The notes under the pieces were generated by a model that worked only from the letters and a program-made list of their open reading frames with translations, ran no database searches and was not told the origin of the DNA. A stretch of 64,000 nt of DNA from Patescibacteria group bacterium (GTDB lineage: Bacteria; Patescibacteriota; Microgenomatia; Levybacterales; GWA1-39-11), in contig DASZRC010000027.1 of NCBI GenBank assembly GCA_035549315.1, positions 4,514 to 68,513 of the forward strand, read 5' to 3'. Made by a program: the position numbers and the translations under genes. Numbering within the stretch: the first letter of the stretch is position 1; every line of letters begins with the position of its first letter. Positions 31,873 through 61,219 of the stretch are shown here, one piece after another.

Positions 31873-32504
31873 TTCTCTCCTGCTGCTTCTTCTATTTGCT
31901 CTTTAACTTCCTTAACGCACGCATTTTTAGTTATTGCTAAAACTAAAAGAGGACACTCCGCTGCCCCACCACCTATTATTTTTGGCATAAGTTTCCCTAA
32001 ATGCGTAGTAGATGCACCATAAGATGAACCCTTACCCAGTTCATTAAATAACTCTTGCAATTCATCTGCCCTGGTAACTATGATGCCAACACTAACCACG
32101 CCAATCTGATGCAAAAGCCTAAAGTTATTCAAATCCCTATCAAAGAAGGGGTCTTTGTTATTCCATTCTAATTCAACAGCTATCTTGTTCTTATAGTAGT
32201 CGACGTTATGCGTAGGCGAAGGATTACTCGTACCATCTATCACTACATCCACATCCCATTTTTTCTCTTTCCAGCCATTACCGTATAAAACATTATCGAA
32301 TTTTGTTGCAATTGGTGACTTCCTCCCACCCGGGGTAATAATATCTTCGTGAGTTATTTGAAACTGTTGAAGAAGATCCGAAAGCTGTTTTAATTCCTCA
32401 GGGAAATCATTTTTTAGAATAGCGCTAGCATGTCTAAACTCATGGATGTCGAATTTATGCAGTATTTCAGGACTAAATATTGATGTTGATGATAAGCTTG
32501 TCAT
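31869..32504 (-). CDS. Putative Type II restriction endonuclease with a BamHI/BglII-like catalytic core
   Basis: An E-x-E motif in …KIAVELEWNN… followed by a hydrophobic strand (…LLHQIGVVSVGIIV…) resembles the BamHI active-site arrangement (…GMEFETGN…LAIIL…). The gene is co-transcribed downstream of a C-protein gene and converges on an MTase. Confidence 0.45.
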   Translation of the reverse strand: MTSLSSTSIFSPEILHKFDIHEFRHASAILKNDFPEELKQLSDLLQQFQITHEDIITPGGRKSPIATKFDNVLYGNGWKEKKWDVDVVIDGTSNPSPTHNVDYYKNKIAVELEWNNKDPFFDRDLNNFRLLHQIGVVSVGIIVTRADELQELFNELGKGSSYGASTTHLGKLMPKIIGGGAAECPLLVLAITKNACVKEVKEQIEEAAGEN

Positions 32505-33612: not shown

Positions 33613-33648
33613 GCAGCCAAACAACGTGGCAATTATTGGACGAAAGAC
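33613..33648. repeat. Conserved 3'-end motif, copy B (GCAGCCAAACAACGTGGCAATTATTGGACGAAAGAC). It overlaps the stop codon of 33633..35150.
   Basis: Seen in the sequence. Confidence 0.75.
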
Positions 33649-35299: not shown

Positions 35300-35980
35300 T
35301 TATTTGTTTACTACTGCATACAAATACTTATATGCATCGACTGCAAGCTGTGCGCCCGCAAGAGTAAATTCCGGAATCAACAATCCATGATAATCGGCAG
35401 CAAAAAGCTGTCTCCTCATACTCTTTAGTTGCTCTTCTACTGTTTTTTCTCCAGAATTATCCTTAATTAAAGTATCACTACGTCTTTTTGCTTGATCTAT
35501 TAACTTCAGATAATATTCTGCGTCTTTAACAGCGTCTAGCTCCACGCCGTTTACAACTCTAACATAATCCATTGATTCCTGAACGACTTGTCCCGCGGTT
35601 CCTGCTATATACTCCTCTCCCGAAGAAATCGAATTAATAATTACACCAGCACCCACTGATGCATCAGCCAAAACAAAGAAGTGATTCATTTCATTCTTGC
35701 CCATCTCAACAAGTGCATCTTTACCCATAACCCCGGAAAGATCCACCATTAATCGTGCTGTAATTAAGCCTGGAACGGAATGCCCTTTGCCAGATTCCCT
35801 ACTATCTCTTATTTCTCCCGCAATATCAGTTTTTTTATCCTTAAGCCCTCTCATGAGAGCTTGCTTGTAGCCGGAAAAATAAGCAAGAGTATCTCTTTTA
35901 TCTGCTTTTGACAGATTTCTTGATCTTTCACCCCACATCACCCTGTATGTAAACACTAAATCATTTTCCTGATTTGCCAT
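35300..35980 (-). CDS. Hypothetical protein, 225-aa family paralog P1
   Basis: Shares with 36285..36962 the motifs WG(E/D)RSRNLS, YFSGY(K/R)Q, LADAS, GEEYIAG and an identical 23-aa C-terminus EFTLAGAQLAVDAYKYLYAVVNK. Confidence 0.55.
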   Translation of the reverse strand: MANQENDLVFTYRVMWGERSRNLSKADKRDTLAYFSGYKQALMRGLKDKKTDIAGEIRDSRESGKGHSVPGLITARLMVDLSGVMGKDALVEMGKNEMNHFFVLADASVGAGVIINSISSGEEYIAGTAGQVVQESMDYVRVVNGVELDAVKDAEYYLKLIDQAKRRSDTLIKDNSGEKTVEEQLKSMRRQLFAADYHGLLIPEFTLAGAQLAVDAYKYLYAVVNK

Positions 35981-36046
35981 AACGCGTATTTTACCAAAAT
36001 ATATGCCTAAAAGCTTATTTTATTTTTATATCCTACAAAAAATTGG

Positions 36047-36061
36047 CAGCCAAACAACGTT
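36047..36061. repeat. Core GCAGCCAAACAACGT, copy C
   Basis: Seen in the sequence. The upstream context AAAAATTGGCAGCC resembles copy A. Confidence 0.6.
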
Positions 36062-36164
36062 TCCATACAAGAATTTAAAATTTAGAAATATTTTGACTCA
36101 TATATGAGACAAAATAAATTAAAAGTTAAGATAAAGAATGTAGTTGTTTGTGGAAGAAAGATCT

Positions 36165-36282
36165 AACTATTTCTTATTGGGGATTCAGCATATTCATTTT
36201 CTTTGTAAATATATGCCTGTACCCTTACTGCTCGTAGATACCCACCTTCTTCTTCCTCAATATTTCCGAATCTTTCTTTCAT
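36165..36282 (-). pseudogene. Truncated duplicate (39 codons) of the N-terminus of the small-paralog gene 37356..37706. It sits 2 bp after the stop of paralog P2.
   Basis: ATGAAAGAAAGATTCGGAAATATTGAGGAAGAAGAAGG matches the first ~38 nt of 37356..37706 except for 3 substitutions, and the sequence then diverges to a stop. A more decayed copy (ATGAAAAACAGATTGGTAAACTTGAGGAAGATCAAAGG) lies at ~35220..35290, directly after paralog P1. Confidence 0.55.
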
Positions 36283-36284
36283 TT

Positions 36285-36962
36285 TTATTTGTTTACTACC
36301 GCATACAAATACTTATATGCATCAACTGCTAATTGAGCTCCTGCGAGCGTAAACTCCGGAACCCACAGCCCTCTATATCCCGCAACTGAAAATCCCTTTC
36401 TCAAACTTTTTAATTTATCCTCTACCGTCTTCGCTCCAGAATTATCCTTAATTAAGGCGGAACTACCTAGCTTTGCCTCCTCCATCATCTTTATATATAT
36501 CCCTGCACCACGTACTGCATCTATGCTTGGGTCAAAAGATTCTGCTACATATCCAATAGTTTCGCTCACTTTGTTTTCCGCAATTCCTGCGATATATTCT
36601 TCCCCTTCTGTTACTGAATGCAAGACTAAGGTGGAACCCATGGATGCATCAGCTAAAACTAAAAAATTGTTAACTTTATTCGCCGCCATTTGATTGAGCG
36701 CGTCATGGTCTATTACCCGAGGAATCTCCATCACTAAACGATTGGCTATTAGGCTAGGGACCGAGAGCCTAGTCCTATCTGCTGTAGCAGTCTTTATATC
36801 AGCCACAAGCTCATCCCTCTTATTTTTTAGATCTCTTAATAACGACTGCCTGTATCCGGAGAAGTAGAACATAGCAGCTTTTTTATCTGCTTCCGAAAGA
36901 TTTCTACTTCTATCTCCCCACGCTTCTCTCATTCTAAATACTAATCCAGCTTCATGATTCAT
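36285..36962 (-). CDS. Hypothetical protein, 225-aa family paralog P2
   Basis: Paralogous to 35300..35980. The last ~45 nt of the two genes are nearly identical, and a promoter cassette copy lies upstream. Confidence 0.55.
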   Translation of the reverse strand: MNHEAGLVFRMREAWGDRSRNLSEADKKAAMFYFSGYRQSLLRDLKNKRDELVADIKTATADRTRLSVPSLIANRLVMEIPRVIDHDALNQMAANKVNNFLVLADASMGSTLVLHSVTEGEEYIAGIAENKVSETIGYVAESFDPSIDAVRGAGIYIKMMEEAKLGSSALIKDNSGAKTVEDKLKSLRKGFSVAGYRGLWVPEFTLAGAQLAVDAYKYLYAVVNK

Positions 36963-36970
36963 AATGGTTG

Positions 36971-37024
36971 CATTTTATCAAAAAATGAGGCTAAATGCTC
37001 AAGGTTAATTAGGAGAGGTTAGTG
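36971..37024 (-). promoter_or_regulatory. Conserved promoter cassette, copy 2. It is upstream of paralog P2 and overlaps the last codons and stop of 37009..37353.
   Basis: Near-identical to 35155..35210. Confidence 0.55.
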
Positions 37025-37353
37025 AGCCTTTTTTCCATTGATAGACTTACTTCTATTGCCCTTCTTTTTCTTACTAAGAAATCTACAAAATTCCATTCTA
37101 TTTCCTTTATCTCTCCACCTTTACTTAGAACCTTTTTAATCCTTTCATCTTGTGCATATGTTGGCCCCAAACCAATAACAACTACAGCCTGCATATATTT
37201 ATTACCTTCTATGTATACTGTTGCTCCGGGATTTTGCTTCACAATTCTATCAACTACAAAATACGCCCCGAGCGATTGACGCAGAGATTTAAAAATCGCT
37301 GCCCTAACATATACGCCTTCTTCTTTAAAAATTGGTCCGAGTTTTTCCGCCAT
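37009..37353 (-). CDS. Small hypothetical protein (114 aa), small-paralog family member C
   Basis: Shares the pattern …EEGxYxRxA…NPGAxV…VVVIG… with 37769..38131 and, more loosely, with 37356..37706. Confidence 0.5.
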   Translation of the reverse strand: MAEKLGPIFKEEGVYVRAAIFKSLRQSLGAYFVVDRIVKQNPGATVYIEGNKYMQAVVVIGLGPTYAQDERIKKVLSKGGEIKEIEWNFVDFLVRKRRAIEVSLSMEKRLTNLS

Positions 37354-37355
37354 GA

Positions 37356-37706
37356 TTAGTTACGTCTTATTGGATCCATTTGTCCATTAGAATATTTTTT
37401 GAGTGCTTGATCACTATAAATTCCTTCAACCCTAGAAATAAGATCATCGTCAAATTGCATTATTCGTCCTGATATTGCAAGTGCATTAGTTATCGCCTTA
37501 TCAACTGTTTCCCTGGGTTTTTGCCTTGCACTTACAATAAGGAGAAACTTTTCTCCATAAGGAAGACCTGCGACATTAACGCTTGCACCATTAATAGCTG
37601 CCAATATTCCATCTCCCGCCCAGGAAACTTCATCCTGTGAATCCACTTCTGCAACTCTTAGGTATATTCCTTCCTCTTCCTCAATATTTCCAAATCTTTC
37701 TTTCAT
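37356..37706 (-). CDS. Small hypothetical protein (116 aa), small-paralog family member B. It has weak roadblock/LC7-like character (GDGILAAINGASVNVAGLP).
   Basis: ORF with a 2-bp gap to the downstream gene. Its N-terminus is duplicated twice downstream as decayed fragments. Confidence 0.5.
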   Translation of the reverse strand: MKERFGNIEEEEGIYLRVAEVDSQDEVSWAGDGILAAINGASVNVAGLPYGEKFLLIVSARQKPRETVDKAITNALAISGRIMQFDDDLISRVEGIYSDQALKKYSNGQMDPIRRN

Positions 37707-37768
37707 AGAAAGGAATTATATGATTAAAGTGGGGAAAAGTAAATTTAAGTCACCTCTAAGTTAAGAGG

Positions 37769-38131
37769 TTAGTTGTTTGAGGCAAGCTTTTGCTTTAAGG
37801 ATTCTTCTATTTCTTCTCCTATTCTTTTTCTAAGTAAACCATCAACTACCAACTCATGTACGTTAATTTCTCTTCCATTCTTATCTTTCAAAGCACTCAT
37901 AATATCATTATCAAAACGCCAATAAGATTCATCATCTCCAATAACAATAACCGTACTCATATTCTTATTTCCCGGGGGAACCAAATGCACTTGTGCACCA
38001 GGATTTCTATCTACTATTCCGGAGACGGAATTAAATGCTTTATCCGCTTGTATTGGATCATAGAATATTGCACCCCTTACATACCTTCCTTCGTCCTTCT
38101 CAATAGCGCTTCTTTGTCTTTCATTTTTCAT
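37769..38131 (-). CDS. Small hypothetical protein (120 aa), small-paralog family member A
   Basis: Paralogous to 37009..37353. Confidence 0.5.
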   Translation of the reverse strand: MKNERQRSAIEKDEGRYVRGAIFYDPIQADKAFNSVSGIVDRNPGAQVHLVPPGNKNMSTVIVIGDDESYWRFDNDIMSALKDKNGREINVHELVVDGLLRKRIGEEIEESLKQKLASNN

Positions 38132-38218
38132 AAGTTTTTAATAATTATTATTCTGTGATTTCTTATGCCACAAGTTAAGTATTATAAGATTGATAAGTTA
38201 AAAAGTAAAATTAAGTAG

Positions 38219-38695
38219 CTATTCCTCAAACGGATTAGGGAGAGGATCGCGGGGCGGAAGATATTTAGCATAATAAGCCATAATATGGAGATTCATATCT
38301 ACCCCTAATTCTTGGTATGCTGCCAAATATTTCATTTTTGCTTCCTGAATTCTTAATGCTGCAAGCTCAGGATCAAGGCCACCCAAGACATCATCTACAA
38401 TTCTTTTTCCTATGGGAGGTAGATACAATGTCTGCTCTTTTCTATCCTTATTATAGGAATCTTCCATTAAGCCCCTATTATGGATTCTCCCTCCTAGTAT
38501 ATTTAAGGAATATAAAGTTCTTTGCGCAACATTAGCCTCGGATAAATCAAGAGATGAGTACAAGCCTTTAACTCTGTCTAACTCTTGCCTAGCTGTTTCT
38601 AGTGTAATTTCAGGATAGGGCTCGGGCTCAGGCGCCACATTTTCCGGCTTTCTCCAGAAAGCGAATCTACCAAATTTACCGCGTCTTGATTCCAT
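38219..38695 (-). CDS. Hypothetical protein (158 aa)
   Basis: ORF only. Confidence 0.45.
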   Translation of the reverse strand: MESRRGKFGRFAFWRKPENVAPEPEPYPEITLETARQELDRVKGLYSSLDLSEANVAQRTLYSLNILGGRIHNRGLMEDSYNKDRKEQTLYLPPIGKRIVDDVLGGLDPELAALRIQEAKMKYLAAYQELGVDMNLHIMAYYAKYLPPRDPLPNPFEE

Positions 38696-38731
38696 AATCT
38701 ATATTATAGGTCTAATTGTTTAAAAGTCAAA

Positions 38732-39202
38732 CTAAGATTTTTTACGGGGAAATTGCGGAATTTGATCCGGAGTTACGATACCTCTTTTAACAAGCTCAAA
38801 TAATCTACTGCCATCTGTTATTTGTGCCTTCAATCTATCTATCTCAGCCAAGGCAGCTCTATTCACCCCAGCATCATTTCTTCCTGGATCAACCATTTGT
38901 TCCCGAAAAAACTGGGCTGCTTTCCTAACCCTTACCGATGGCTTATCATAATCCCAACTTTCTCTTGCAGCTTGAACATCGCGAATATTTTCAAAAGATC
39001 TACCATCAAAAAATCCAAAATCCAAATCTGGAATTCTATTATTAATAGCAACTTCATCTGCTATGGCAATTACTTGCGCAGCATTAACAATCCCTTCTCT
39101 TGTTAAAATTTTTCGTGTTCTGGGATCTAAACGTAAAAGCTCAAGTCCCATCTGAGAGAATCGATTTGGCTGATACCTATCTTCTTTTTGATCTGCACTC
39201 AT
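38732..39202 (-). CDS. Hypothetical protein (156 aa)
   Basis: ORF only. Confidence 0.45.
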   Translation of the reverse strand: MSADQKEDRYQPNRFSQMGLELLRLDPRTRKILTREGIVNAAQVIAIADEVAINNRIPDLDFGFFDGRSFENIRDVQAARESWDYDKPSVRVRKAAQFFREQMVDPGRNDAGVNRAALAEIDRLKAQITDGSRLFELVKRGIVTPDQIPQFPRKKS

Positions 39203-39240
39203 AAAACGGATTATAAGATTTTAGATGTGAAGTTGCAAAC

Positions 39241-39921
39241 CTATCCTACAGCAACCGGCTCTTGGGGATGATGCTTGTCATATACTCCCATTATTTCTTC
39301 TAATTTTTCTTTTGCCTCTGTCATTAGCTGGTCATCCGGATTAGCCAATAAAGTTTTGTAATTTTTCCTCATATCAGAAAGCATTTCATCAAGTTCTTCA
39401 ACCCTTGTTGAGTGATTTTCTACAACATAGTAAACAAAGTTGCTATGATATGGGTCATTCTGTGCCGTTAACTCTTCTCCTGGTTTTAAAGGCGTGCGTG
39501 GCCTTCCGCCTTTTTCAACAAGAAAATAATGGTCCCGTCTTATAAAATCTGCAATAAGATCTCTAACCAAAAGCTTTTTATCTATGGGACTATTTGTAAC
39601 TTCTTGATAAAAAGTAGCTACCGCTCCGCTGAAATCTTCCCCAACGCTACCCTGAGTTAAAATCATTCCGGCTTTGTTTTCTCTAGGATGATTACCGGAC
39701 AAAACTACATTTGCCATCTTTCCCTCAAGGGCAGAATCCAACCCGACGTCTTCCACTAGTTCGTCTGTCATAACCCAATCAGGCCTAATACTTTTTGCAT
39801 ATGAAAACATTTTTCTTTGAGCAAGCTTATCTCCTTGAGAAAGCGGGAATGTTGCAAAAACAATTGCTTTTGCTTTATCTGCTGTGAGTGGGGGATATTG
39901 CCCTGGCTTCTCTTCTTCCAT
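39241..39921 (-). CDS. Hypothetical protein (226 aa), the first gene of the minus-strand cluster
   Basis: ORF only. It has weak, unconvincing similarity to the P1/P2 family in its central region. Confidence 0.45.
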   Translation of the reverse strand: MEEEKPGQYPPLTADKAKAIVFATFPLSQGDKLAQRKMFSYAKSIRPDWVMTDELVEDVGLDSALEGKMANVVLSGNHPRENKAGMILTQGSVGEDFSGAVATFYQEVTNSPIDKKLLVRDLIADFIRRDHYFLVEKGGRPRTPLKPGEELTAQNDPYHSNFVYYVVENHSTRVEELDEMLSDMRKNYKTLLANPDDQLMTEAKEKLEEIMGVYDKHHPQEPVAVG

Positions 39922-40216: not shown

Positions 40217-43200
40217 ATGCAGAAGAAAAAGAAAACATTAAACAGAAAAAACTTACAAAACCCTGAGTTTTATGGACTCCCAAAGTACACACAATTTTTC
40301 TACACTCTCCTGTCTCTAATTTTTGTTTTCGGCTTTGCTCTCTGGTGGTTTCAACCAAACCATATACCTTTTAACTTTGCCGGAGAACTCCGTTTTATAG
40401 ATATTCTCTTATTTCTAACCGTAAGCTACATTATCTGGCAACCAATAACAATGGATATTTTGACATGGGCAATTTCATCCAACATAAAAGATATTCGTCA
40501 CCAAAAACCGACCGCCGGATCAAAAGTAGCTTTTATAACAACCATAGTTCCTGCTAGTGAATCACTAGATTTACTACATAAATGTTTACCTGCTATGGTA
40601 GATGCGTCATACCCGCATGACACTTGGCTTTTAGATGAAGGGGATAGCGCTGAAGTAAAAGAAATTTGTAGAAAATATGGTGTCCACTATTTTACAAGAC
40701 ATGGCAGGGAAGAATTTAACACCCCAAATGGAAAGTTCACCAAAACAAAAGGCGGAAACCACAATTCTTGGTATGAAGTCTATGGAGATAATTATGATTT
40801 TGTTGCCCAGATTGATACAGACTTTGTCCCCAAAAAAACTTTTCTCACAAAAACATTAGGATACTTTAGGGATCCAAAAGTTGCTTTTGTTGGTACTCCA
40901 CAAATATATGGAAATACAGATGAGTCAATAATTGCAAGAGGAGCAGCGGAACAACTTTATACATTCTACGGATCTGTTTTAAAAGGATTAAGTAGTATGA
41001 AGATGACTCTACTTATTGGGGCAAACCATATTATTAGAGTTGCAGCCTTACGTAATGTTAATCACTATAGTGCACATATAACTGAAGATTTAATAACGGG
41101 AATGAAACTCCATGCCAACGGTTGGGAGAGCGTTTACATTTCAGAACCTCTTGCAGTTGGGGAGGGCCCATCAACCTGGGAGGCATATTTTAGTCAACAA
41201 ATGCGTTGGGCGTATGGATGTATGGATATATTTTTCCACCACAGCCCAAAACTATTTAAAAGAATGGGGCTAAGAAGAACAGTATATTATTTCTTTCTCC
41301 AACAACATTATTTTACAGGACTTGCCATGGCGCTAAGTATAATTTTGATAAGTCTTTATTTTTTCCTAGGACTTAGGGCAGCAAATGTAGACCTCTACAA
41401 ATTTTTTGGGCTCTACTCCGTAACCCTCATAATTTGTTGGCTAATGTCTGTTTTCCTACAAAGGTTCAACGTATATAGAAAAAGTGAAGGGGAAATGCTA
41501 GTTGCCGGAAAACTTATTAGTATTGCGGCATGGCCCGTTTGGTTCTTGGCATTTATAAGTTTGGTTACCGGTAAAAAATTATCATACAAAGTTACTCCAA
41601 AAGGGGAAAATGACGCAAAACCAAAAAGGTCCTTTAAAATTTTTATTCCCCATATAACACTGGGGTTAATAACATTGGCAGGACTTCTTTATTCTATTTT
41701 CATAGGAAGACAAAACATTGGAATGGTTTTCTGGGCAAGTGTTTCTATTATTCTTATGTTTAGTGTTCCATTTACCCAAGAAATAGATGATTTTACAAAG
41801 AAAGCGCAGAAAATTATGGTAAGGGTAGGTTTTAAACTTTATAAAATAATAAGAAAAATTGATAGCAAACTTACACCGGAATTATTTAAATCAAGCGAGG
41901 AAAATGATGTCAAAAGGGTTAAAAAAATTGCCCCAAGAAAAAGATATCTTAATGATTATGTTTTTCTAACTCTTGTAGTAATTATTTCATCTGTTCTCTA
42001 TATAAATAAGATTTCATTTTATAGTGATGACTGGTCATTCTTGGGAAACTTTAGTTTGTCACAAAACCATTCACTACTTGGATTATTCCAAACAGCAACA
42101 ACACCAAATACATTAATGCGCCCCGTCCAAAATTTTTATGAAGCGCTTCTATATTGGTCTTTTGGAACATCACCTCTTGGCTACCAACTGGTAAATTTGG
42201 GAATATTTATTGGAATAGTTGTATTTTTCTATACCGTTCTAAGGCAGCTCAAAGTACCAAGACTTTTATCCGTTGCGATTCCCCTTGTCTATGTACTGCT
42301 CCCCAATTATTCAACAGACAGATTTTGGTTTGCGGTACATCAAGCAAACCTTAGCGTACTATTTTATTTTATAAGCCTTTTTGCTGCTTTAAAATCCGTA
42401 TCACGTTTTACACTTAGAAAAAGTCTATGGAAAGTAATTAGTATAGTGGCCCTTTTATTAAGCGTATTAAGTTATGAAGTTGTTATTCCATTATTTGTAA
42501 TAAACTTATTTATTTTGTGGAACCCATACAATCTTTTCTTAAGAATTGTTTATGGGAAAAGACGGTCAAATATGGTTTTTATAAGCGTAATCTCCATATT
42601 TCTTCTTTATACCTTGGTCTTCAAAGCACTTACAACAAGGCGCCTTACCGGAGGCATTGACATAAACTACATCCTACATGTTTTGGGATCTGCGATACAT
42701 GTAAATTACGGTTCTTGGTTTATTAACCTACCATACATATGGGGAGAAATAATTTCTGCCCATACCGATCCAATTCTTCTTGCACTAACCGGAATAATGT
42801 ATGTTTTTATTTTCTATCATTTATATTCCCTTGCATCAGACCCCGATTTTAAATTCCCTACAATTTCTGCAATGAAAACTCTAACACTTTCTAGTTTTGT
42901 TATTTTCTTTTTGGGATATGCAATTTTTTTCACAAACAACCAAGTTGGATTTTCTCCAACGGGGGTTGAGAATAGAGTTGCTATTGCAGCAGCCATTGGA
43001 GTGGCTATGACTTTTGTTGGGCTATCCGGATGGTTAAGTAAAATATTTTTGCCGGAAAAAGCAGCAAAGGTAATGTTTTGCATTATTCTATCTTTGATAT
43101 GCGCCGGAAGTTTTTTGACCGTTAATACAATTGCATCTTTTTGGGCCGATGCAGGATCCAAGAGCACCAAAGTTCTTGCCGACATACATAAAGAATTTCC

Positions 43201-43570
43201 TACTGTGAACAATAAAAGTACAATACTTCTTGATGGAGTGTGTCCATATGTTGGACCGGCACCGGTTTTTGAAGCAGATTGGGATCTTAAAGGAGCACTG
43301 GAAACATATTACCTCAAACCATTGAATGCAGATATTGTGACGCCTCGCCTAAAGGTAAAAGACAATAGCATAACAACTACTATTTATACATTCACCACAA
43401 GCTATCCTTATAAAAACATGTACATCTACAATTACAAAACCAAACAAATTTTCAAAATTAATGATGCTGACGATGCGCATGCATACTTTAATACGTACAA
43501 CAATGACCTAAATAATGGCTGTCCCAATGCAGAGGCCGGAAAGGGTGTGGCTATCTTTAAATTTATATGA
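40217..43570 (+). CDS. Family-2 glycosyltransferase (processive cellulose/beta-glucan-synthase-like, BcsA-type) fused to a ~600-aa C-terminal polytopic membrane domain
   Basis: Carries the D, DxD, TED and QxxRW motifs (…DEGDSAEV…, …QIDTDFVPK…, …ITEDLITG…, …QQMRWAYG…). A GGAGGAGG SD lies upstream. Confidence 0.75.
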   Translation: MQKKKKTLNRKNLQNPEFYGLPKYTQFFYTLLSLIFVFGFALWWFQPNHIPFNFAGELRFIDILLFLTVSYIIWQPITMDILTWAISSNIKDIRHQKPTAGSKVAFITTIVPASESLDLLHKCLPAMVDASYPHDTWLLDEGDSAEVKEICRKYGVHYFTRHGREEFNTPNGKFTKTKGGNHNSWYEVYGDNYDFVAQIDTDFVPKKTFLTKTLGYFRDPKVAFVGTPQIYGNTDESIIARGAAEQLYTFYGSVLKGLSSMKMTLLIGANHIIRVAALRNVNHYSAHITEDLITGMKLHANGWESVYISEPLAVGEGPSTWEAYFSQQMRWAYGCMDIFFHHSPKLFKRMGLRRTVYYFFLQQHYFTGLAMALSIILISLYFFLGLRAANVDLYKFFGLYSVTLIICWLMSVFLQRFNVYRKSEGEMLVAGKLISIAAWPVWFLAFISLVTGKKLSYKVTPKGENDAKPKRSFKIFIPHITLGLITLAGLLYSIFIGRQNIGMVFWASVSIILMFSVPFTQEIDDFTKKAQKIMVRVGFKLYKIIRKIDSKLTPELFKSSEENDVKRVKKIAPRKRYLNDYVFLTLVVIISSVLYINKISFYSDDWSFLGNFSLSQNHSLLGLFQTATTPNTLMRPVQNFYEALLYWSFGTSPLGYQLVNLGIFIGIVVFFYTVLRQLKVPRLLSVAIPLVYVLLPNYSTDRFWFAVHQANLSVLFYFISLFAALKSVSRFTLRKSLWKVISIVALLLSVLSYEVVIPLFVINLFILWNPYNLFLRIVYGKRRSNMVFISVISIFLLYTLVFKALTTRRLTGGIDINYILHVLGSAIHVNYGSWFINLPYIWGEIISAHTDPILLALTGIMYVFIFYHLYSLASDPDFKFPTISAMKTLTLSSFVIFFLGYAIFFTNNQVGFSPTGVENRVAIAAAIGVAMTFVGLSGWLSKIFLPEKAAKVMFCIILSLICAGSFLTVNTIASFWADAGSKSTKVLADIHKEFPTVNNKSTILLDGVCPYVGPAPVFEADWDLKGALETYYLKPLNADIVTPRLKVKDNSITTTIYTFTTSYPYKNMYIYNYKTKQIFKINDADDAHAYFNTYNNDLNNGCPNAEAGKGVAIFKFI

Positions 43571-44550
43571 TACCTAAAGTTATTTTTATTTTTATCACTA
43601 TTGTTTTGATATTAGGTGGCAGTTATACACTGCTTAATAACCACCCGCATCAAGAAATTTTACTTGGTGCTTGGACACAAGGATTTTATGATGCAAACCA
43701 GAAAAAGTTAAACCCTCAAAAACTTTTAGACTTTGAGTCTTTAACAAAGAAAAAATATTCTATAGCCCATTATTACAGAGGATGGGAATCTTTTATTGAT
43801 CCCACTCTTGTTAAAGAATTTAGTTTACTAAGAAAAAACGGATGGACCCCAATGCTTAGCTCTAACCCATATTATTTTTCTGATTGTCCCGTGCAAACTG
43901 AATCAATATACAAAAGCATTGCAGAAGGTAAGTGTGACGAGTTTTTAAATAAAGCCGGGGAAAATTTAAAGAAAATTAACAAACCGTTTTATTTGGCTTT
44001 TGCTTGGGAAATGAATAACAAAGATCTTGAATGGAGTGTTCCTTATACAGGGAGCTCTCCACAAGATTTTGTAGATGCATGGCGCCACATTCATGATATG
44101 TTTGAAAAACACGGAGCAAAAAATATACTCTGGGTATTTTGTCCAAATATTCCGGATGTTCCCCACCCGTCCTATAAAGACCTTTATCCCGGCGACAAAT
44201 ACGTAGACTGGACTTGTTTAGATGGATACAACTGGGGGACAACTCAAAGTTGGAGCAAATGGACAAGCTTTACAGACATTTTTGGTTCCTCCTATCAAAC
44301 CATTTCAGACATAGCTCCGGGCAAACCATTAATGATTGGGGAAGTAAACACAACAGATGTTGGCGGAAACAAAGCGGGTTGGTACGGGGATGCATTTAGG
44401 GATATTCCCTACAATTTTCCAAACATAAAAGCTGTTGTTATTTTTAATGAAGATAAAAGCAAACAGGAAAATGTTAATTGGAGAGTTGATGTCTCAAAAG
44501 ATTCTTTGAATTCTTATATATCTGCAATTAAACCTGCGATTTATAAATAG
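43567..44550 (+). CDS. Clan GH-A glycoside hydrolase (GH26/GH113-like endo-beta-1,4-glycanase) with an N-terminal TM
   Basis: …LAFAWEMNN… supplies the acid/base Glu and …MIGEVN… the nucleophile Glu. The gene overlaps the upstream GT2 by 4 bp. Confidence 0.55.
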   Translation: MIPKVIFIFITIVLILGGSYTLLNNHPHQEILLGAWTQGFYDANQKKLNPQKLLDFESLTKKKYSIAHYYRGWESFIDPTLVKEFSLLRKNGWTPMLSSNPYYFSDCPVQTESIYKSIAEGKCDEFLNKAGENLKKINKPFYLAFAWEMNNKDLEWSVPYTGSSPQDFVDAWRHIHDMFEKHGAKNILWVFCPNIPDVPHPSYKDLYPGDKYVDWTCLDGYNWGTTQSWSKWTSFTDIFGSSYQTISDIAPGKPLMIGEVNTTDVGGNKAGWYGDAFRDIPYNFPNIKAVVIFNEDKSKQENVNWRVDVSKDSLNSYISAIKPAIYK

Positions 44551-44561
44551 GTTTTTTAAAT

Positions 44562-47420
44562 ATGAATATTCTGTCCTATTACAAAATTATGGAATTTGAT
44601 ACGGCAAGAACGCCTCCGTTACCGTCTGCTCCCACAGATCAAGAAAAATATATGTACCTTAAAAGGGGTAATAGATCTCTTATCTTTTTTTCAATAATAA
44701 GCTTTATTGGAATTTATATTAGTCTGTTTGATTTTCTTGGTAATCACACAGCACTTTGGCCACTGTATGTGTACCTTGTTCTTACCGGAATTTATTTTGT
44801 AGATTCTATTATTGTTAATTTCTTCTCAAAAGATTTTGACATTAAAAAACATAAATATCTGGTTAATAAATGGTCCAAGGGTCTTGATAGAAGGGTTGAT
44901 GTTTTTCTGCCAACAGCCGGAGAAGATATATCCATATTACAAAACACGTGGAATGGAATATTAGACATGACCAAAAACTTTGGCGGGAAAATCCAAGTCT
45001 ATTGTCTTGATGACTCAGCAAGAACGGAAGTCAAAACTCTGGCAGAAATATATGGATTCAATTACATAGTCAGACCAAAAAGAGGATGGTTTAAAAAATC
45101 CGGAAACCTGCGATATGGGTACAAAGTTTCTAATGGAGAATTTATTGCAATTTTTGATGCAGACTTTAAACCAAGGGCAGACTTTTTGAATGAACTTTTA
45201 CCTTACTTACTTGAATATAAAGATGTAGGACTAGTCCAATCCCCGCAATATTTTGATGTAAACAAAAATCAGAATTGGCTGCAAAGGGGCGCAGGAGAAG
45301 TACAAGAATTATTTTATAGAATGTGCCAAGTTTCTCGCCAAAGCCACAACGCCTCAATTTGCGTTGGCTCAAATGCATTGTATAGAAGAGACGCACTTGC
45401 AGAATCCGGAGGGACAGCGCTTATTCAACACTCAGAAGATGTACATACCGGTTTCAACATGAGAATGAAGGGATGGACGATACAATATATCCCAATAGTT
45501 CTTGCCAAAGGCCTTTGTCCTGACGACATGGTCTCTTTCTTCAAACAACAATACAGGTGGTGCATGGGGTCAATGACACTTTTGTCCTCTCATAAATTTT
45601 GGCATACCAAAATTTCATTAAAGGCTCGCCTCTCATATTTCTCCGGATTTTTATATTATATTCATACTGCAATTAGTTCTTTTATAGCGCCAATTATTCC
45701 GCTAACCGTCCTAATCTTTTTCCCGGAAAAAGTTTATTGGGGAACATATCTCTATATTCTTCCTTCAATAATATTTATACAAATCATTTATCCTCTTTGG
45801 CACAGAGCCGTTTATGGCATTGAAGCTTGGTCAACCAGAATTGTTTATGGATGGGCTCATCTATATGCAATTTTTGACGGAATAACAAAGGACGCAATGT
45901 CATGGCAGCCAACCGGAACAAAAAGTAAAGCAGACCCCAAGTATTTTAGATTTAGACTGTTACAAATAATTTTTAATTTATTACCCTCTATTGTTTGGGT
46001 TTATCTTGCAGCCCGCCAGGTAATTGTCTACAACAACTTTGTTTTTATTCCAATATTATTAAGCGGAATTTATTACTACCTAATATGTGCAAAGATTAGT
46101 TTCTTTGTTTCCAACAGCAGACTAAATTTTGGTGATTTATTTTCTGCAAATATCAAAAGCGTGTCAAAACAAATTGTAATTGCTATGCCGTTATTAATAT
46201 TAGTTTCTCTGGGGGTATTACTTTTTAATGCCAACTCTTTGAATATTAAATTTAATTTCTACCAGAGCAAACCAATAGTAAGCGGGGTTAGCCAAAAGAA
46301 GACTTCTATTAAAAATGCTTATGCAAATAACACATTGATTCAGAGTGTTAATAATGATGAGATATTATTAAAGACGTGGACATATTACAAAGATAATTTT
46401 GTTACAGAAAATGGCCAAAGCATTGACCCTGATAGACAATACAAAACAACTTCTGAAGGACAATCATACATACTGCTAAGAAGTGTGATAATAAATGATA
46501 AAGATACGTTTGAAAAATCCTGGAGCTGGACAAAAGAAAATCTTCAGCACAAACAAAATGATAAACTTTTTTCTTGGTTATGGGGAGGAGCAACTCCTGC
46601 AAAAGAAAAAGTTATCTATAAAGAAAACGCAACAGACGCAGATGAAGATATTGCATTGGCTTTAATACTTGCATCATACAAATGGAACAATAAGGAATAT
46701 TTAGCGGAAGCAAAGGCAATAATTTCTGACATATGGAAATTTAATGTTGTTAAACAAAACACCAGATATTATTTATTGGGAGGATCACAATTTAATAAAC
46801 CCCAAGGATTTGTTATAAACCCATCCTACATCTCTCCTGCCTCGTACAAAATATTCTCCGCTGTTGATAAAGATCATCCTTGGAAAAATCTGGCAAAAGA
46901 TTCATATTACTTACTCCAAAAAATTAATCTAGATACCCCCAATACGGTTGGTCTTCCTCCAAATTGGATATTGTTAAGTAGGTCCGGAAAAATTACCAAA
47001 GCAACAATTTTTGTTACCGGCAACTCTGACATGTACGGCTATGATGCATTTAGGACTTTTTGGAGAGTAGCGCTTGACGCAAATTGGTTTGACAACAAAG
47101 AAGCAAAAGATTATCTAAGTATTGCAGAAATATTTTTTGGAGAAAAATGGAATAAGGATAAAAAGATAAATGCAGTATATACTACAGATGGAAAAGTAAT
47201 AGATAGTAAACAAAGTGTTAGCACCTATACCGGCCCACTTTCTGTATTTAGCATAAGGGACAAAAAGATAGCGGATGAAATTTACAAAGACTACTATAAT
47301 AAGCAGCTAAACCATGATGGATACTGGGGAAACGGAAAAAATTATTATGACCAAAACTGGGCTTGGTTTGCAACTGCTTTGTATTCCGGCAATATAAAAC
47401 TTCCAAAAAACTTACCCTAA
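44562..47420 (+). CDS. Fusion protein: an N-terminal GT2 cellulose-synthase-like domain (BcsA-type) and a C-terminal GH8 endoglucanase domain (BcsZ-type)
   Basis: The GT2 motifs are …CLDDSARTE…, …FDADFKP…, …SEDVHTG… and QQYRW. The GH8 signature motifs are …TTSEGQSYILL… and …ATDADEDIALALILASYKW…. Confidence 0.75.
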   Translation: MNILSYYKIMEFDTARTPPLPSAPTDQEKYMYLKRGNRSLIFFSIISFIGIYISLFDFLGNHTALWPLYVYLVLTGIYFVDSIIVNFFSKDFDIKKHKYLVNKWSKGLDRRVDVFLPTAGEDISILQNTWNGILDMTKNFGGKIQVYCLDDSARTEVKTLAEIYGFNYIVRPKRGWFKKSGNLRYGYKVSNGEFIAIFDADFKPRADFLNELLPYLLEYKDVGLVQSPQYFDVNKNQNWLQRGAGEVQELFYRMCQVSRQSHNASICVGSNALYRRDALAESGGTALIQHSEDVHTGFNMRMKGWTIQYIPIVLAKGLCPDDMVSFFKQQYRWCMGSMTLLSSHKFWHTKISLKARLSYFSGFLYYIHTAISSFIAPIIPLTVLIFFPEKVYWGTYLYILPSIIFIQIIYPLWHRAVYGIEAWSTRIVYGWAHLYAIFDGITKDAMSWQPTGTKSKADPKYFRFRLLQIIFNLLPSIVWVYLAARQVIVYNNFVFIPILLSGIYYYLICAKISFFVSNSRLNFGDLFSANIKSVSKQIVIAMPLLILVSLGVLLFNANSLNIKFNFYQSKPIVSGVSQKKTSIKNAYANNTLIQSVNNDEILLKTWTYYKDNFVTENGQSIDPDRQYKTTSEGQSYILLRSVIINDKDTFEKSWSWTKENLQHKQNDKLFSWLWGGATPAKEKVIYKENATDADEDIALALILASYKWNNKEYLAEAKAIISDIWKFNVVKQNTRYYLLGGSQFNKPQGFVINPSYISPASYKIFSAVDKDHPWKNLAKDSYYLLQKINLDTPNTVGLPPNWILLSRSGKITKATIFVTGNSDMYGYDAFRTFWRVALDANWFDNKEAKDYLSIAEIFFGEKWNKDKKINAVYTTDGKVIDSKQSVSTYTGPLSVFSIRDKKIADEIYKDYYNKQLNHDGYWGNGKNYYDQNWAWFATALYSGNIKLPKNLP

Positions 47421-52184: not shown

Positions 52185-52270
52185 CGAGCAAAGGCGGAGG
52201 AGACAGGATTCGAACCTGCGAGAGTCTTACGACTCAGGGATTTAGCAAACCCCCTCAGTGGGCCACTGTG
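52185..52270 (-). tRNA. tRNA-Ser (anticodon GCU)
   Basis: Manual fold: acceptor GGAGGAG/CTCCTCC, anticodon loop TTGCTAA, long variable arm and T-loop GGTTCGAATCC. Two GC hairpins follow its 3' end. Confidence 0.8.
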
Positions 52271-52386
52271 ACACTCCTCCAGAGGCTATATTATACCAAA
52301 GCTAAACTTGTTTTTGTTAAATTCTGTTAGGATTTTGTGAGGCTAATTAGGTTGCTCACAAACCCTCCCTGTGCTATGATTTAGAC

Positions 52387-52824
52387 ATGCCTGACATAGT
52401 AGAACATCAGCCGATATCAAATGTGGCTCCAGCAGCTCAGCACATTGAACCCAATCCCCACATGGATGTTGTTGCAGCCAATGTAGATACCGTGCACGAA
52501 AAAGAGATAGAAAAGGAACTTGCAAAAGTTGCAAAAGAAGTTGGAGGAGAGCCAACACATACGGCAGCGCTTGCCCAGGATTTAACAGGGGACAATATCC
52601 AAATTATTGAAAAGCCAAAAGTCCATCCTGATGATAACAGATGGGGAGCAGAAAGATTAGAAGAGATAGAAAATTTGAAAAAGGGAATTAAGGTAAATAA
52701 GAAAAACAATATTCTCTCGGGTCTAACTAGTATTTTTAGCAGAAAAAATAGCGCTACAAAAATGCAGGACCAACAGATAAGTCGTCCGCAACAAACGGAA
52801 GGAGAAATAAAAAATGCAGCTTGA
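52387..52824 (+). CDS. Hypothetical protein (145 aa)
   Basis: ORF only. It overlaps the next gene by 11 bp. Confidence 0.4.
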   Translation: MPDIVEHQPISNVAPAAQHIEPNPHMDVVAANVDTVHEKEIEKELAKVAKEVGGEPTHTAALAQDLTGDNIQIIEKPKVHPDDNRWGAERLEEIENLKKGIKVNKKNNILSGLTSIFSRKNSATKMQDQQISRPQQTEGEIKNAA

Positions 52825-55231
52825 TTCATTTTCAACACTAGTAATTAATGTAGTTCTTGCTTTTGTGATTGCGTTTTTACTTTCCTCAATTATTATTGCT
52901 TGTCTTGTAGGAATTGCTATTGCTTTTGGGTTCTGGCAGAAAAGTAAAAAAAGACAAGAGAGAGCTATTGATACTGTCTTATTAGAAGTGTCTTTGCCTC
53001 GCGAAAATGAAATAAAGATTGATGCAGCTGAACAGCTTTTCTCAAGCCTCACATCCATGAAAGGAACAAAAGGAATGTTGTCATTCCTAAAACTTGCAGA
53101 TAGCATTTCTTTTGAAATTGTTGCGCGTCCACAAGACATTAGATTCTACATTGGAGTTTCAAATAAATTAAAGGACATGGTTGAGAAACAAATTCATGGG
53201 GCCTACCCTGACGCACAAATTTTGGAAGTTGAAGACTACAATCTTTTTCAACACCCTGGAAAAATAGCCTATGCATCCTTAAAACTTGAGAAGTCTAATT
53301 ATTTACCAATCAAAACCTATAAGGATCTAGCTATTGATCCATTGTCTTCAATCACAAGCACTATTGGGAAAATGGTAGAAGGAGAAGCAGCTGCCATACA
53401 AATATTAATAACTCCCGGCGGAGATGCTTGGAAAAAAGCAGGGAGAGAATATATTACAACTACCAAAAAACGCGAGGCAAATCCTGAAACAGCAAAGTAC
53501 TCTGTTGACCAAAAAGAATTAGAAGCAATTGAGCAGAAAATTACAAAGCCCGGGTTTATGACTTACGTCAGAATAATGGCAGTAGCCCCAACAAAAGAGG
53601 CAGCAGATATCCACCTATCAAATATAGAAGGGGCGTTTTCTCAATTTTCATCCTTTAATTCTTTTGGAACGGAAAAAAATAAATTTTTCAAAGGAATGGC
53701 GATTGTTGATTTTATATACCGCCAACTCCCACTTATTCCAAAAAATCTTGGCGTCTTAGCAACAGATGAACTTGCAACCATTTTCCACTTTCCAAATAAA
53801 ACCGTTGAGACACCAAGCATTCACTGGCTTGGAGCTCGCGTTGCTCCGGCTCCTGCTAATATTCCAAACCATGGCCTATTCTTAGGAAAGAGTGTTTACA
53901 GAGGACAAGAAAGACCAATATTTATTGGGGATGATGACAGAAGGCGACATATGTATATCATTGGAAAAACCGGAGTAGGAAAATCAGAATTCTTAAAAGA
54001 CATGATTCTGCAAGATATTAGGGAAGGAAAAGGAGTCTGTTTTATTGACCCGCACGACACAATAGATATGATTCTTCCTCTTATTCCGCCGGAAAGAGCT
54101 GAGGATGTAATCTTGTTTGACCCGTCTGATACAGAACGCCCCATGGGAATTAACTTCTTGGACGCAGACACTGAAGAACAAAAAGATCTTATCTGTTCTT
54201 CAATCATAGGACTTATGTACAAACTTTACGACCCTAATAAAACAGGTATTATTGGTCCGCGTTTTGAGCACGCAATTAGAAATGCAATGTTAACCGTTAT
54301 GACTGAAAAGGGAAATACTTTTGTAGAAGTTGTTAGGGTCTTAACAGATGCTTCTTTTGTTCAGGAGTTATTGCCAAAACTTCAGGATCCCATGGTAAGA
54401 CGTTATTGGACAGACCAAATTGCACAAACTTCTGACTTCCACAAATCAGAAGTTCTTGATTACATTGTTTCAAAGTTTGGAAGATTTGTTACAAACCGTA
54501 TGGTAAGAAATATTATTGGACAAAGTGAATCCGGATTTAACTTCCGTAAAGTTATGGATGAAGGGAAAATTCTCCTGATCTCTCTTGCAAAAGGAAAGAT
54601 TGGAGAAGATAATGCTGCTTTTCTTGGTCTAATTCTTGTTCCAAGAATCTTGGCTGCTGCTATGAGTAGGCAAGATATTCCACAAGACCAAAGGCGCGAC
54701 TTTTATCTATATGTTGATGAGTTCCAAAATTTCGCTACTCCTGACTTTGGACAGATTTTGTCTGAGGCAAGAAAATACAAGCTTAACTTAATTGTTGCAA
54801 ACCAGTTTATTGGACAAATTGAAGAAGATGTTAAGAACGCAATTTTTGGAAATGCCGGTACAATAATTTCTTTCCGTGTTGGAGTATCTGATGCAAATTA
54901 TTTACAACATGAATTCCAGCCAATATTTAATGAGGCGGATTTAATTAACGTAGAGGTTTACCATGCATATATTAAAACTCTTATTGGAAACGAACCAACG
55001 CCTCCTTTCTCTCTTGACCTTACAAAGGATATTGCTGCAGAGAAAAAAATGGAAAACCCAAGAGTTGCAGAATTAGTACGGGAACTATCACGTCTTAAAT
55101 ACGGTAAGCCAAAAGATTTGGTGGAAGCAGAAATTGCAAAGCGTTCAAGGCTTTACGAAGTCTTGGGTGATATTCAATCTAGTATTGAGGGGAATAATGA
55201 ATCCGGTCTTGGACCGGGAGGAAGTATTTAG
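52814..55231 (+). CDS. TraD/TraG/VirD4-family (DUF87-like) membrane-anchored ATPase, a type IV secretion coupling-protein homolog
   Basis: Two N-terminal TM segments, a Walker A (IIGKTGVGKSEF), a Walker B (FYLYVDEFQNF) and a conserved C-terminal region of VirD4/TraG-like ATPases. Confidence 0.65.
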   Translation: MQLDSFSTLVINVVLAFVIAFLLSSIIIACLVGIAIAFGFWQKSKKRQERAIDTVLLEVSLPRENEIKIDAAEQLFSSLTSMKGTKGMLSFLKLADSISFEIVARPQDIRFYIGVSNKLKDMVEKQIHGAYPDAQILEVEDYNLFQHPGKIAYASLKLEKSNYLPIKTYKDLAIDPLSSITSTIGKMVEGEAAAIQILITPGGDAWKKAGREYITTTKKREANPETAKYSVDQKELEAIEQKITKPGFMTYVRIMAVAPTKEAADIHLSNIEGAFSQFSSFNSFGTEKNKFFKGMAIVDFIYRQLPLIPKNLGVLATDELATIFHFPNKTVETPSIHWLGARVAPAPANIPNHGLFLGKSVYRGQERPIFIGDDDRRRHMYIIGKTGVGKSEFLKDMILQDIREGKGVCFIDPHDTIDMILPLIPPERAEDVILFDPSDTERPMGINFLDADTEEQKDLICSSIIGLMYKLYDPNKTGIIGPRFEHAIRNAMLTVMTEKGNTFVEVVRVLTDASFVQELLPKLQDPMVRRYWTDQIAQTSDFHKSEVLDYIVSKFGRFVTNRMVRNIIGQSESGFNFRKVMDEGKILLISLAKGKIGEDNAAFLGLILVPRILAAAMSRQDIPQDQRRDFYLYVDEFQNFATPDFGQILSEARKYKLNLIVANQFIGQIEEDVKNAIFGNAGTIISFRVGVSDANYLQHEFQPIFNEADLINVEVYHAYIKTLIGNEPTPPFSLDLTKDIAAEKKMENPRVAELVRELSRLKYGKPKDLVEAEIAKRSRLYEVLGDIQSSIEGNNESGLGPGGSI

Positions 55232-55255
55232 GTTATAGGCAATAGGTATTAGGGG

Positions 55256-55328
55256 TGGGCGCGATAGGACTCGAACCTATGACCAGGTGTGTATAAGACA
55301 CCCGCTCTACCAACTGAGCTACACGCCC
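55256..55328 (-). tRNA. tRNA-Ile with a genomically encoded UAU anticodon
   Basis: A canonical 73-nt cloverleaf: acceptor GGGCGTG/CGCGCCC, D-arm TAGCTCAGTTGGTAGAGC, anticodon stem GGTGT/ACACC, loop CTTATAC and T-loop GGTTCGAGTCC. Confidence 0.8.
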
Positions 55329-60244: not shown

Positions 60245-60685
60245 ATGCGAGTTGTTAATAAATTTGCCAATACGTATAAGCCTCTTGATAAAATTGAGGC
60301 AGGCATTGCTTTGCTTGGAAGTGAGGTAAAGGCTTTACGTGAAGGACATGCTGACATAACCGGCAGCTATATTAGAATAAGTGGTCTTGAGGCATATCTA
60401 GTTAATGGAAAGATTTTTCCATATAAGTTTTCTAGAATTGGCGGATACCAAGAAGATAGAAGCAGAAAACTATTGCTCCATAAAAAGGAAATATTGGCTT
60501 TGAAAAGCAAAATGGATCAAGGGAAATATACAATTATTCCGCTGGCAATTTATTTAAAAGACAGAAATTTTAAAGTTGAAATAGCTCTTGTTGAAAGCAA
60601 AGATAAAAGAGAAAAAAGGCGGGACAAAAGACGTGACACTATGGAACGCGACGAAGCGCGGGAAATAAAAAACCTAGTTTCCTAA
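60245..60685 (+). CDS. smpB: SsrA-binding protein SmpB
   Basis: SmpB core (…GIALLGSEVKALREGHADITGSYI…LLHKKEILAL…) and a basic C-terminal tail. Confidence 0.85.
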   Translation: MRVVNKFANTYKPLDKIEAGIALLGSEVKALREGHADITGSYIRISGLEAYLVNGKIFPYKFSRIGGYQEDRSRKLLLHKKEILALKSKMDQGKYTIIPLAIYLKDRNFKVEIALVESKDKREKRRDKRRDTMERDEAREIKNLVS

Positions 60686-60781: not shown

Positions 60782-61193
60782 GGGGATGCATTGCATCGAC
60801 AAGGTTGCTCATTAAAAACTGCAAGCCGATAATGATACTAATCGCAAAATTGTATCAAAAATAAATGCTGACGGAGTTATATCCAAAGGCCGTGGGTTAA
60901 TGCCAAAATTGGCAGATGCCTTCTCACCAAAAGCTTATGCTTTTAGTGGGTTAGCTGCTTAAAAAACAGCCACTATTTACACCGTTTCTTTTCTCAAGCG
61001 GATAGGTGTAGGTAAAAACAAAGTTTGAGATAGGATAAGGAAGTTGATTTGGTCCTTACTCCAAAACTAAGAATCTTGGAATTGTTTTCCCCGCCAATTG
61101 GGTCAGAACAAGACGACAATTAAGATTTGGCTAAGCTTGTAGATGTTTTTAGAGAGTCAATTTTGGACGAGGGTTCATTACCCTCCATCTCCA
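60782..61193 (+). ncRNA. ssrA: tmRNA (SsrA), ~412 nt
   Basis: The 5' end GGGGATGCATTGCATCGACAAGG pairs with the 3' end CATCTCC-A to form an acceptor stem carrying the G3·U70 alanine identity pair. T-arm GAGGG-TTCATTA-CCCTC. An internal tag ORF ends …AYAFSGLAA-TAA. The gene lies immediately downstream of smpB. Confidence 0.7.
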
Positions 61194-61219
61194 CAAAAGT
61201 TAGTAGTAGAGCATACCCA

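Follow-up and report, generated by a model that had tools for sequence, protein, structure and literature searches.

A tRNA-Ile gene with a DNA-encoded UAU anticodon

The window, by which we mean the whole 64-kb stretch of DNA analysed here, carries a tRNA-Ile(UAU) gene. The gene and the features of its neighbourhood that are considered below are as follows.

52193..52280, minus strand: tRNA-Ser(GCU), called by ARAGORN; a frequent neighbour of tRNA-Ile(UAU) in Patescibacteria/CPR
52814..55231, plus strand: TraD/VirD4-like coupling ATPase (DUF8128 + TrwB/TraG; NCBIfam and Pfam), which adjoins the tRNA and lies outside the decoding system
55256..55328, minus strand: tRNA-Ile(UAU) gene, 73 nt (ARAGORN, Rfam and direct reading of the sequence)
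55297-55291, minus strand: anticodon loop C32-U33-U34-A35-U36-A37-C38 (direct reading)
60245-60685, plus strand: smpB, with the tmRNA downstream
60782-61194, plus strand: tmRNA, with smpB directly upstream

ARAGORN calls the gene as tRNA-Ile(tat) at 55254-55328 on the minus strand, and Rfam RF00005 gives a full-length match to 55256-55328 on the same strand with 72.3 bits (gathering score 29; E 7.2e-14), in an alignment with no non-canonical pairs flagged. Read on the minus strand from 55328 to 55256, the sequence is GGGCGTG TA GCTC AGTTGGTA GAGC G GGTGT CTTATAC ACACC TGGTC ATAGG TTCGAGT CCTAT CGCGCCC A. The stems consist of a 7-bp acceptor (with one U6-G67 pair), a 4-bp D stem, and anticodon and T stems of 5 bp each; the variable loop has 5 nt and the discriminator is A73. 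CCA is not encoded in the gene (CCC comes after A73), and direct reading of the sequence reveals no intron. The original prediction of a genuine, canonical cloverleaf was therefore correct in its anatomy, to which we add the strand, unstated before. That the UAU anticodon is encoded in the DNA, as was also proposed, is clear from the ARAGORN run and from direct reading, which places T34-A35-T36 at 55295-55293 on the minus strand. Because position 34 is encoded as T and not as C, no lysidine step is needed. Position 38 is a C in place of the usual A38. The gene is a functional chromosomal tRNA-Ile, and as such an ordinary and expected part of the translation apparatus of this organism.

Genomic context and the question of a mobile origin

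The organism is a Patescibacteria (CPR) MAG, and the gene content of the window is typical of CPR, with type IV pilus parts, FemAB, PMT_2, DUF2298 and many ORFs that belong to no family. Two very large cellulose-synthase-like GT2 genes (1117 and 952 aa) lie around a GH26-like gene at 40217-47420, and the second of them (952 aa) is fused to a BcsZ-type endoglucanase domain. Eight consecutive ORFs of 114-226 aa on the minus strand (35300-39921) have no Pfam match at E <= 1e-5, and just downstream of this run there is a 505-aa ORF, likewise without a Pfam match, at 33633-35150. A D12-class adenine methyltransferase gene is convergent with one for a BglII-family restriction endonuclease at 30601-32504, forming a type II R-M pair, and an Mrr-like nuclease is encoded at 28120-28959. 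The tmRNA specifies an unusually long tag of 31 residues (ADGVISKGRGLMPKLADAFSPKAYAFSGLAA); compared with the Rfam consensus, its tag region contains a large insertion.

The proximity of the TraD/VirD4-like ATPase gene (52814-55231) to the tRNA could indicate that the latter was brought in by a conjugative element, and a phage could likewise be the source, given that tRNA(UAU) is abundant in viral contigs (at least 120 matches to a loose pattern). However, the pair of TraD-like gene and tRNA is kept in relatives, with amino acid identities of the TraD-like protein of 84% in locus L167 and of 61-62% in loci L168 and L141, the last of which is labelled Woesebacteria. In L167 the synteny also includes the downstream genes, with proteins that are 49-84% identical and a tRNA identical at 73/73 positions. 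The recurrence of the pair in these three loci identifies the site as a conserved chromosomal one and not as a recent insertion. No repeat of the 3' half of the tRNA is present anywhere in the 64-kb window, and no close viral tRNA was found, the best among the matches listed being identical at 55/73 positions. It also counts against a mobile origin that T4SS genes are described as a normal chromosomal feature of Patescibacteria in a recent preprint (bioRxiv 10.1101/2025.01.22.634366). Based on the synteny in relatives and the absence of a 3'-half repeat from the window, we reject a mobile-element or phage-borne tRNA, an origin that we regard as highly improbable. The tRNA-Ser(GCU) is found at most 8 kb from tRNA-Ile(UAU) in 14 loci of relatives.

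AUA usage and amino acid identity

The region has a G+C content of ~36%. Across 51 ORFs, AUA accounts for 616 of 18,039 codons (34.1 per 1000), making it the 7th commonest codon; it represents 38.6% of Ile codons and its count is twice that of AUG. The expectation that AUA would be frequent in this AT-rich genome is thus confirmed by codon count, and the frequency is near the top of the bacterial range given in PMC12514573.

We also considered identities other than Ile. The tRNA could be an anticodon-shifted relative of tRNA-Val(UAC) that receives Val, or AUA could have acquired another meaning, such as Met. Against a sequence HMM of the UAU family, CPR tRNA-Val(UAC) genes score 47-52 bits compared to 58.7 for the window tRNA, and their scores are almost equal to that of the Ile2-like CAU tRNA beside tilS in a Kazan contig. 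In addition, CPR tRNA-Val(UAC) and the UAU family have C38 in common and near-identical acceptor stems. Given the high tRNA-Val(UAC) scores, we tested the meaning of AUA, for which we used FtsH of relatives in the tRNA(UAU) clade and not a protein of the window genome. The 249 AUA codons in FtsH of this clade align with I in 42%, V in 22%, L in 14% and M in 3% of cases in sequences from outside the clade. The corresponding values for AUU are 45/22/15/3% (I/V/L/M), whereas AUG aligns with M in 39% and GUA with V in 58%. AUA sites therefore match Ile as AUU and AUC sites do, and not as GUA or AUG sites would, and on this alignment evidence we read AUA as Ile in the tRNA(UAU) FtsH clade.

The features of the tRNA itself are also informative. 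The Ile identity elements in E. coli are A73, A35, U36, A37, A38, C4-G69, U12-A23 and C29-G41. The window tRNA has A73, A35, U36, A37, C4-G69 and U12-A23, which fit Ile and count against Val; the absence of the other two, with C38 in place of A38 and U29-A41 in place of C29-G41, speaks against Ile by the E. coli rules, which may not fit a type-2 IleRS. Moreover, the main identity element for ValRS, C36, is removed by U36, which again counts against Val. On the FtsH codon alignment, which largely refutes it, we reject a Val or Met identity, and a tRNA with an identity other than Ile is hardly credible.

A conserved tRNA-Ile(UAU) family in CPR

To see how far the gene extends beyond the window, we scanned one genome per species for 185,579 species with a pattern that constrained the D arm, C32-U33-UAU-A37 and the T loop and nothing else. 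At least 119 matches to this scaffold-specific pattern were obtained; since the pattern is specific to one scaffold and the counts are lower bounds, the scan is no census. Among the matches listed, 103 have CPR labels, 10 are unlabelled and 6 have other labels. The CPR labels among them include Paceibacterota, Parcubacteria, Kaiser-, Nomura-, Taylor-, Vogel-, Zambryski-, Staskawicz-, Lloyd-, Campbell-, Doudna- and Woesebacteria, Gracilibacteria and 'Patescibacteria group', and one TPA MAG series among the matches listed is labelled generically as 'uncultured Candidatus Saccharibacteria'. The tRNA of L167 apart, those of L177 and L192 resemble the window tRNA closely, each with 70/73 identical positions.

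Position 38 is a pyrimidine in 115 of the matches listed, the exceptions being four that are labelled Streptomyces or Acidimicrobiales. The 115 matches correspond to 85 distinct sequences. All of these have A73, and at position 38, which the pattern did not constrain, 84 have C and 1 has U. Canonical pairs fill 99.7% of pair cells, and compensatory double changes are seen in 14 of the 15 pairs that were free of the pattern. This conservation, together with the covariation in the stems across 85 distinct sequences, argues for a functional tRNA under selection. In a pattern-free, ftsH-linked sample (n=30), position 38 is C in 16, U in 7 and A in 7 sequences; an invariant C38 is therefore rejected, and C38 prevails in the Paceibacteria-type group without being universal.

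Several variants of the family deserve mention. In 18 of the 85 distinct CPR sequences (L123-L241), C1-G72 replaces the usual G1-C72 at the start of the tRNA. The Streptomyces (L136, L180 and L186) and Acidimicrobiales (L239) matches carry a tRNA(UAU) that agrees with the family in its D arm and T loop but has A38. These high-GC Actinobacteria presumably have TilS, and hence would be cases of a redundant isoacceptor. Finally, L192 and L211, labelled Gammaproteobacteria or Pseudomonadales, have a CPR-type tRNA with C38, which, judged by the sequences, points to mislabelled or contaminated bins.

Bacterial tRNA-Ile(UAU) has so far been regarded as rare. Nine species in three clades with the gene and without tilS were described in 2013 (PMC3575796), TAT-anticodon tRNA genes were reported for 19 bacterial species in 2014 (PMC4013482), and a preprint from 2026 still refers to 'rare cases' (bioRxiv 10.64898/2026.02.03.703510); TilS was reported for 98.2% of bacteria in 2018 (PMC6063277). 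The view that the UAU isoacceptor is confined to a minority of lineages agrees with these reports, but does not hold within Patescibacteria/CPR, where the 103 CPR-labelled genes among the matches listed and the ftsH loci described below make it the norm. TilS-independent decoding of AUA by tRNA-Ile(UAU) is already known, and the broader CPR pattern is the more interesting result. This clade-wide spread is noteworthy and absent from the literature that we searched, in which there are no papers linking lysidine, TilS or tRNA-Ile with Patescibacteria/CPR.

tilS and tRNA-Ile(UAU) at the ftsH locus

Two of the tRNA(UAU) loci from the genome scan, as well as one 562-kb Paceibacterota contig, have ftsH without tilS. 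We surveyed a sample of 80 metagenome loci around relatives of the FtsH proteins from tRNA(UAU) loci. A tRNA(UAU) gene is present near ftsH in 28 of the 80 and also in L243, L217 and L233, giving 31 loci, all of which are without TilS; it is mostly located within ~2.5 kb downstream of ftsH, and in one case at 4.4 kb. In 7 of the 80 loci tilS is directly upstream of ftsH, and all of these are without tRNA(UAU); three of the seven have 2-3 CAU tRNAs beside tilS. Protein searches seeded with CPR TilS recovered short, type-II-like TilS proteins in Kazan, Berkelbacteria, Moranbacteria, 'Parcubacteria group' and 'Patescibacteria group'. Three further TilS loci (Parcubacteria/Moranbacteria) that we looked up show the same gene order, with tilS immediately upstream of ftsH, and again lack tRNA(UAU), which brings the TilS-bearing loci to 10, with tRNA(UAU) in 0/10. 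No locus with both tilS and tRNA(UAU) is present in ~1.9 Mb of CPR DNA (~150 tRNA(UAU) loci and 10 TilS loci); in CPR, tRNA(UAU) and the tilS/tRNA-Ile2(CAU) system are mutually exclusive at every locus inspected. A tblastn search with E. coli TilS against 876 kb of CPR loci gave no hit, at low power (about one hit expected by chance placement). The tRNA sets provide some additional information: in L141 and L149 the CAU tRNAs near tRNA(UAU) are those for fMet and Met, and there is no third one, which, for this small sample, is suggestive of an absence of tRNA-Ile2(CAU).

In a neighbour-joining tree of FtsH, 29 tRNA(UAU) loci group in a single 35-leaf clade, in which there is no TilS locus; the downstream flank of the other 6 leaves is at most 2.5 kb. 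One tRNA(UAU) locus (L291) falls outside this clade. Neither tilS nor tRNA(UAU) is present in several FtsH loci whose flanks extend for 10 kb in either direction, and since many FtsH loci are without either feature, adjacency to ftsH is informative but not universal.

Southlakia epibionticum, a cultured Saccharibacterium, has a TilS of 294 aa whose gene adjoins ftsH and was scored essential in 2/3 analyses, and its tRNA genes include a single tRNA-Ile and three 'tRNA-Met' genes. The presence of TilS, one tRNA-Ile and three 'tRNA-Met' genes identifies this as a canonical lysidine system without tRNA(UAU). The tRNA(UAU) trait is therefore not CPR-wide, and we rejected the idea of a CPR-universal tRNA(UAU). 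The association of the UAU tRNA with loss of tilS that had been suggested for the window gene is thus supported indirectly, the two being mutually exclusive at every informative CPR locus, and has to be narrowed, since some CPR lineages have kept TilS.

An arrangement of divergent smpB, ftsH and tRNA-Ile(UAU) is kept in the Paceibacteria-type FtsH clade (L243 9190-12334, L233 1365-3933 and 10 more); in 12 loci of the UAU clade, no more than 1.5 kb separates ftsH from the smpB gene upstream. In TilS-bearing CPR it is tilS that fills the position next to ftsH on the upstream side, and smpB is present in 0/10 TilS loci. Six loci (L138, L178, L187, L199, L274 and L302) share a conserved cluster of tRNA genes in the order Ile(UAU)-Val(GAC)-...-Leu-Val(UAC), after which Phe and Gly come in most of the six. 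The tRNA-Val(UAC) in this cluster has U32/C38, and its acceptor stem hardly differs from that of the tRNA-Ile(UAU) in the same genome; because of this the UAU tRNA possibly arose from tRNA-Val(UAC) (C36U) and not from tRNA-Ile2(CAU) (C34U). Finally, eight loci (L137 7711-7798, L165, L194, L203, L224, L238, L243 17441-17530 and L261) have a tRNA-Ser(ACU) with the loop U-U-A-C-U-A-A, and 7/8 also have a tRNA-Ser(GCU), at a distance of between a few tens of bases and ~1 kb. Ser tRNAs with A34 are very rare in bacteria, with 3 cases in tRNADB-CE (PMC4013482); A34 of tRNA-Ser(ACU), if deaminated to inosine, would read AGA too.

Decoding of AUA in the window organism

No tilS, ftsH or CAU tRNA is present in 78 kb of the 164-kb contig, including 7.7 kb beyond the window ends, and none of the six frames of the window contains the PP-loop motif SGGxDS. 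Proteins of the HVZ series, a sister MAG of the window organism, are not among the best 'Patescibacteria group' TilS matches. A tblastn search with E. coli IleRS as query found no ileS in the window or the fetched loci. In the window lineage the tRNA adjoins the TraD-like gene, as in L167, L168 and L141, and is not ftsH-linked, so that the ftsH-locus argument reaches the window genome by extrapolation only. The window lineage may be nearer to Microgenomatia.

We consider it likely that the window tRNA is a functional chromosomal tRNA whose U34-A35-U36 anticodon reads AUA by direct Watson-Crick pairing and that, as in its relatives, TilS has been lost, leaving this tRNA as the sole AUA decoder. 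Alternatively, TilS and tRNA-Ile2(CAU) could be kept elsewhere in the genome, with tRNA-Ile(UAU) adding AUA capacity as a redundant isoacceptor. Such an arrangement has been proposed for Lactobacillus casei, Cyanothece and Ferrimonas, in which tilS and tRNA-Ile(UAU) occur together (PMC3575796), and TilS does exist in CPR (Southlakia, Kazan, Berkelbacteria, Moranbacteria and 'Parcubacteria group'). The 78 kb covered here are the smaller part of the genome, which is compatible with redundancy, as is the lack of a link between the window tRNA and ftsH. On the other hand, redundancy would be at odds with the lack of any locus bearing both systems in the CPR DNA inspected and with the CAU tRNA sets of L141 and L149. 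Furthermore, no large tRNA(UAU) contig was recognised in the TilS match lists, and the strong conservation and covariation of the family argue for a tRNA that is needed and not optional. Taken together, we judge a redundant isoacceptor to be unlikely.

With tRNA-Ile(UAU) as the only AUA decoder, one of the commonest codons would be paired directly by U34-A35-U36, and charging would be carried out by an IleRS that tolerates U34. The IleRS of Minisyncoccus archaeiphilus, a cultured Paceibacteria isolate, has PF19302 (DUF5915), while that of E. coli has the PF06827 zinc finger; by these domains, the Minisyncoccus enzyme is classified as archaeal/eukaryote-type. A37 is probably t6A. How misreading of AUG would be limited is more speculative: competition by tRNA-Met and features of the ribosome could contribute, and closure of the loop by pyrimidine 32 and pyrimidine 38 might weaken codon binding enough to make U-G wobble at AUG unfavourable. 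Position 38 is a pyrimidine in 23/30 of the pattern-free, ftsH-linked sequences, and C38 is also found in tRNA-Val(UAC) of the clade.

It is possible, and we propose it tentatively, that a large part of Patescibacteria (Paceibacteria-type and others, amounting to thousands of species) has swapped TilS/tRNA-Ile2(CAU) for a genomic tRNA-Ile(UAU), often at the ftsH locus, and that a lineage-specific Y32/Y38 loop, together with a type-2 IleRS, enables U34, unmodified or with an unusual modification, to read AUA and not AUG. Lysidine formation by TilS is treated as essentially universal in bacteria by textbooks and recent papers, the TilS/tRNA-Ile2(CAU) system is also regarded as stable in evolution, and CPR is one of the largest bacterial radiations. 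If a top-ten codon is read by a plain UAU anticodon without TilS in a major CPR branch, the exception would be far commoner than thought, and TilS would be unsafe as a universal marker or drug target for these organisms. The avoidance of AUG by U34 would also become testable, because Minisyncoccus archaeiphilus is now in culture.

Comparison with known systems

Phage tRNA(UAU) has the same anticodon as the window tRNA, but the window gene is chromosomal, vertically conserved and syntenic, and has no close counterpart among the viral matches listed. The UAU anticodon is also DNA-encoded in the eukaryotic cytosolic tRNA-Ile(UAU) and in the archaeal one found without TiaS, which are served by an archaeal/eukaryotic-type IleRS. 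The eukaryotic tRNA-Ile(UAU) contains an intron, and its positions 34 and 36 are pseudouridines, whereas the window gene is intronless. The canonical pair of tRNA-Ile2(CAU) and TilS, as in Saccharibacteria, Kazan, Berkelbacteria and Moranbacteria, performs the same task of reading AUA as Ile and is likewise found at the ftsH locus; the CAU tRNA beside tilS in Kazan (L298 5376-5452) even has its acceptor stem and overall scaffold in common with the UAU family. The differences are that position 34 is T and not C, and that tilS is missing from every tRNA(UAU) locus inspected.

Among bacteria, Bifidobacterium and Neorickettsia combine tRNA-Ile(UAU) and a eukaryote-type IleRS with the absence of tilS (PMC3575796). 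They belong to other phyla than CPR, and their pairing of a type-2 IleRS with tRNA-Ile(UAU) would be paralleled in Paceibacteria, as suggested by the Minisyncoccus enzyme. The tRNA-Ile2(UAU) of Mycoplasma mobile (Taniguchi et al. 2013, PMC3575796) is similar in that a genome-encoded bacterial UAU anticodon reads AUA in an AT-rich, reduced genome without tilS, and A37 follows U36 in both tRNAs (t6A in M. mobile). The original prediction invoked special features of the anticodon loop that avoid misreading of AUG in this organism; this is not supported by the published work, in which the ribosome and not the anticodon loop is implicated and U34 is unmodified (PMC3575796). The M. mobile IleRS is bacterial-type with a Trp-to-Arg change, while the enzyme of the CPR relative Minisyncoccus appears to be archaeal/eukaryote-type. 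Finally, M. mobile represents an event in one species of the Mollicutes, whereas the CPR trait spans a large radiation.
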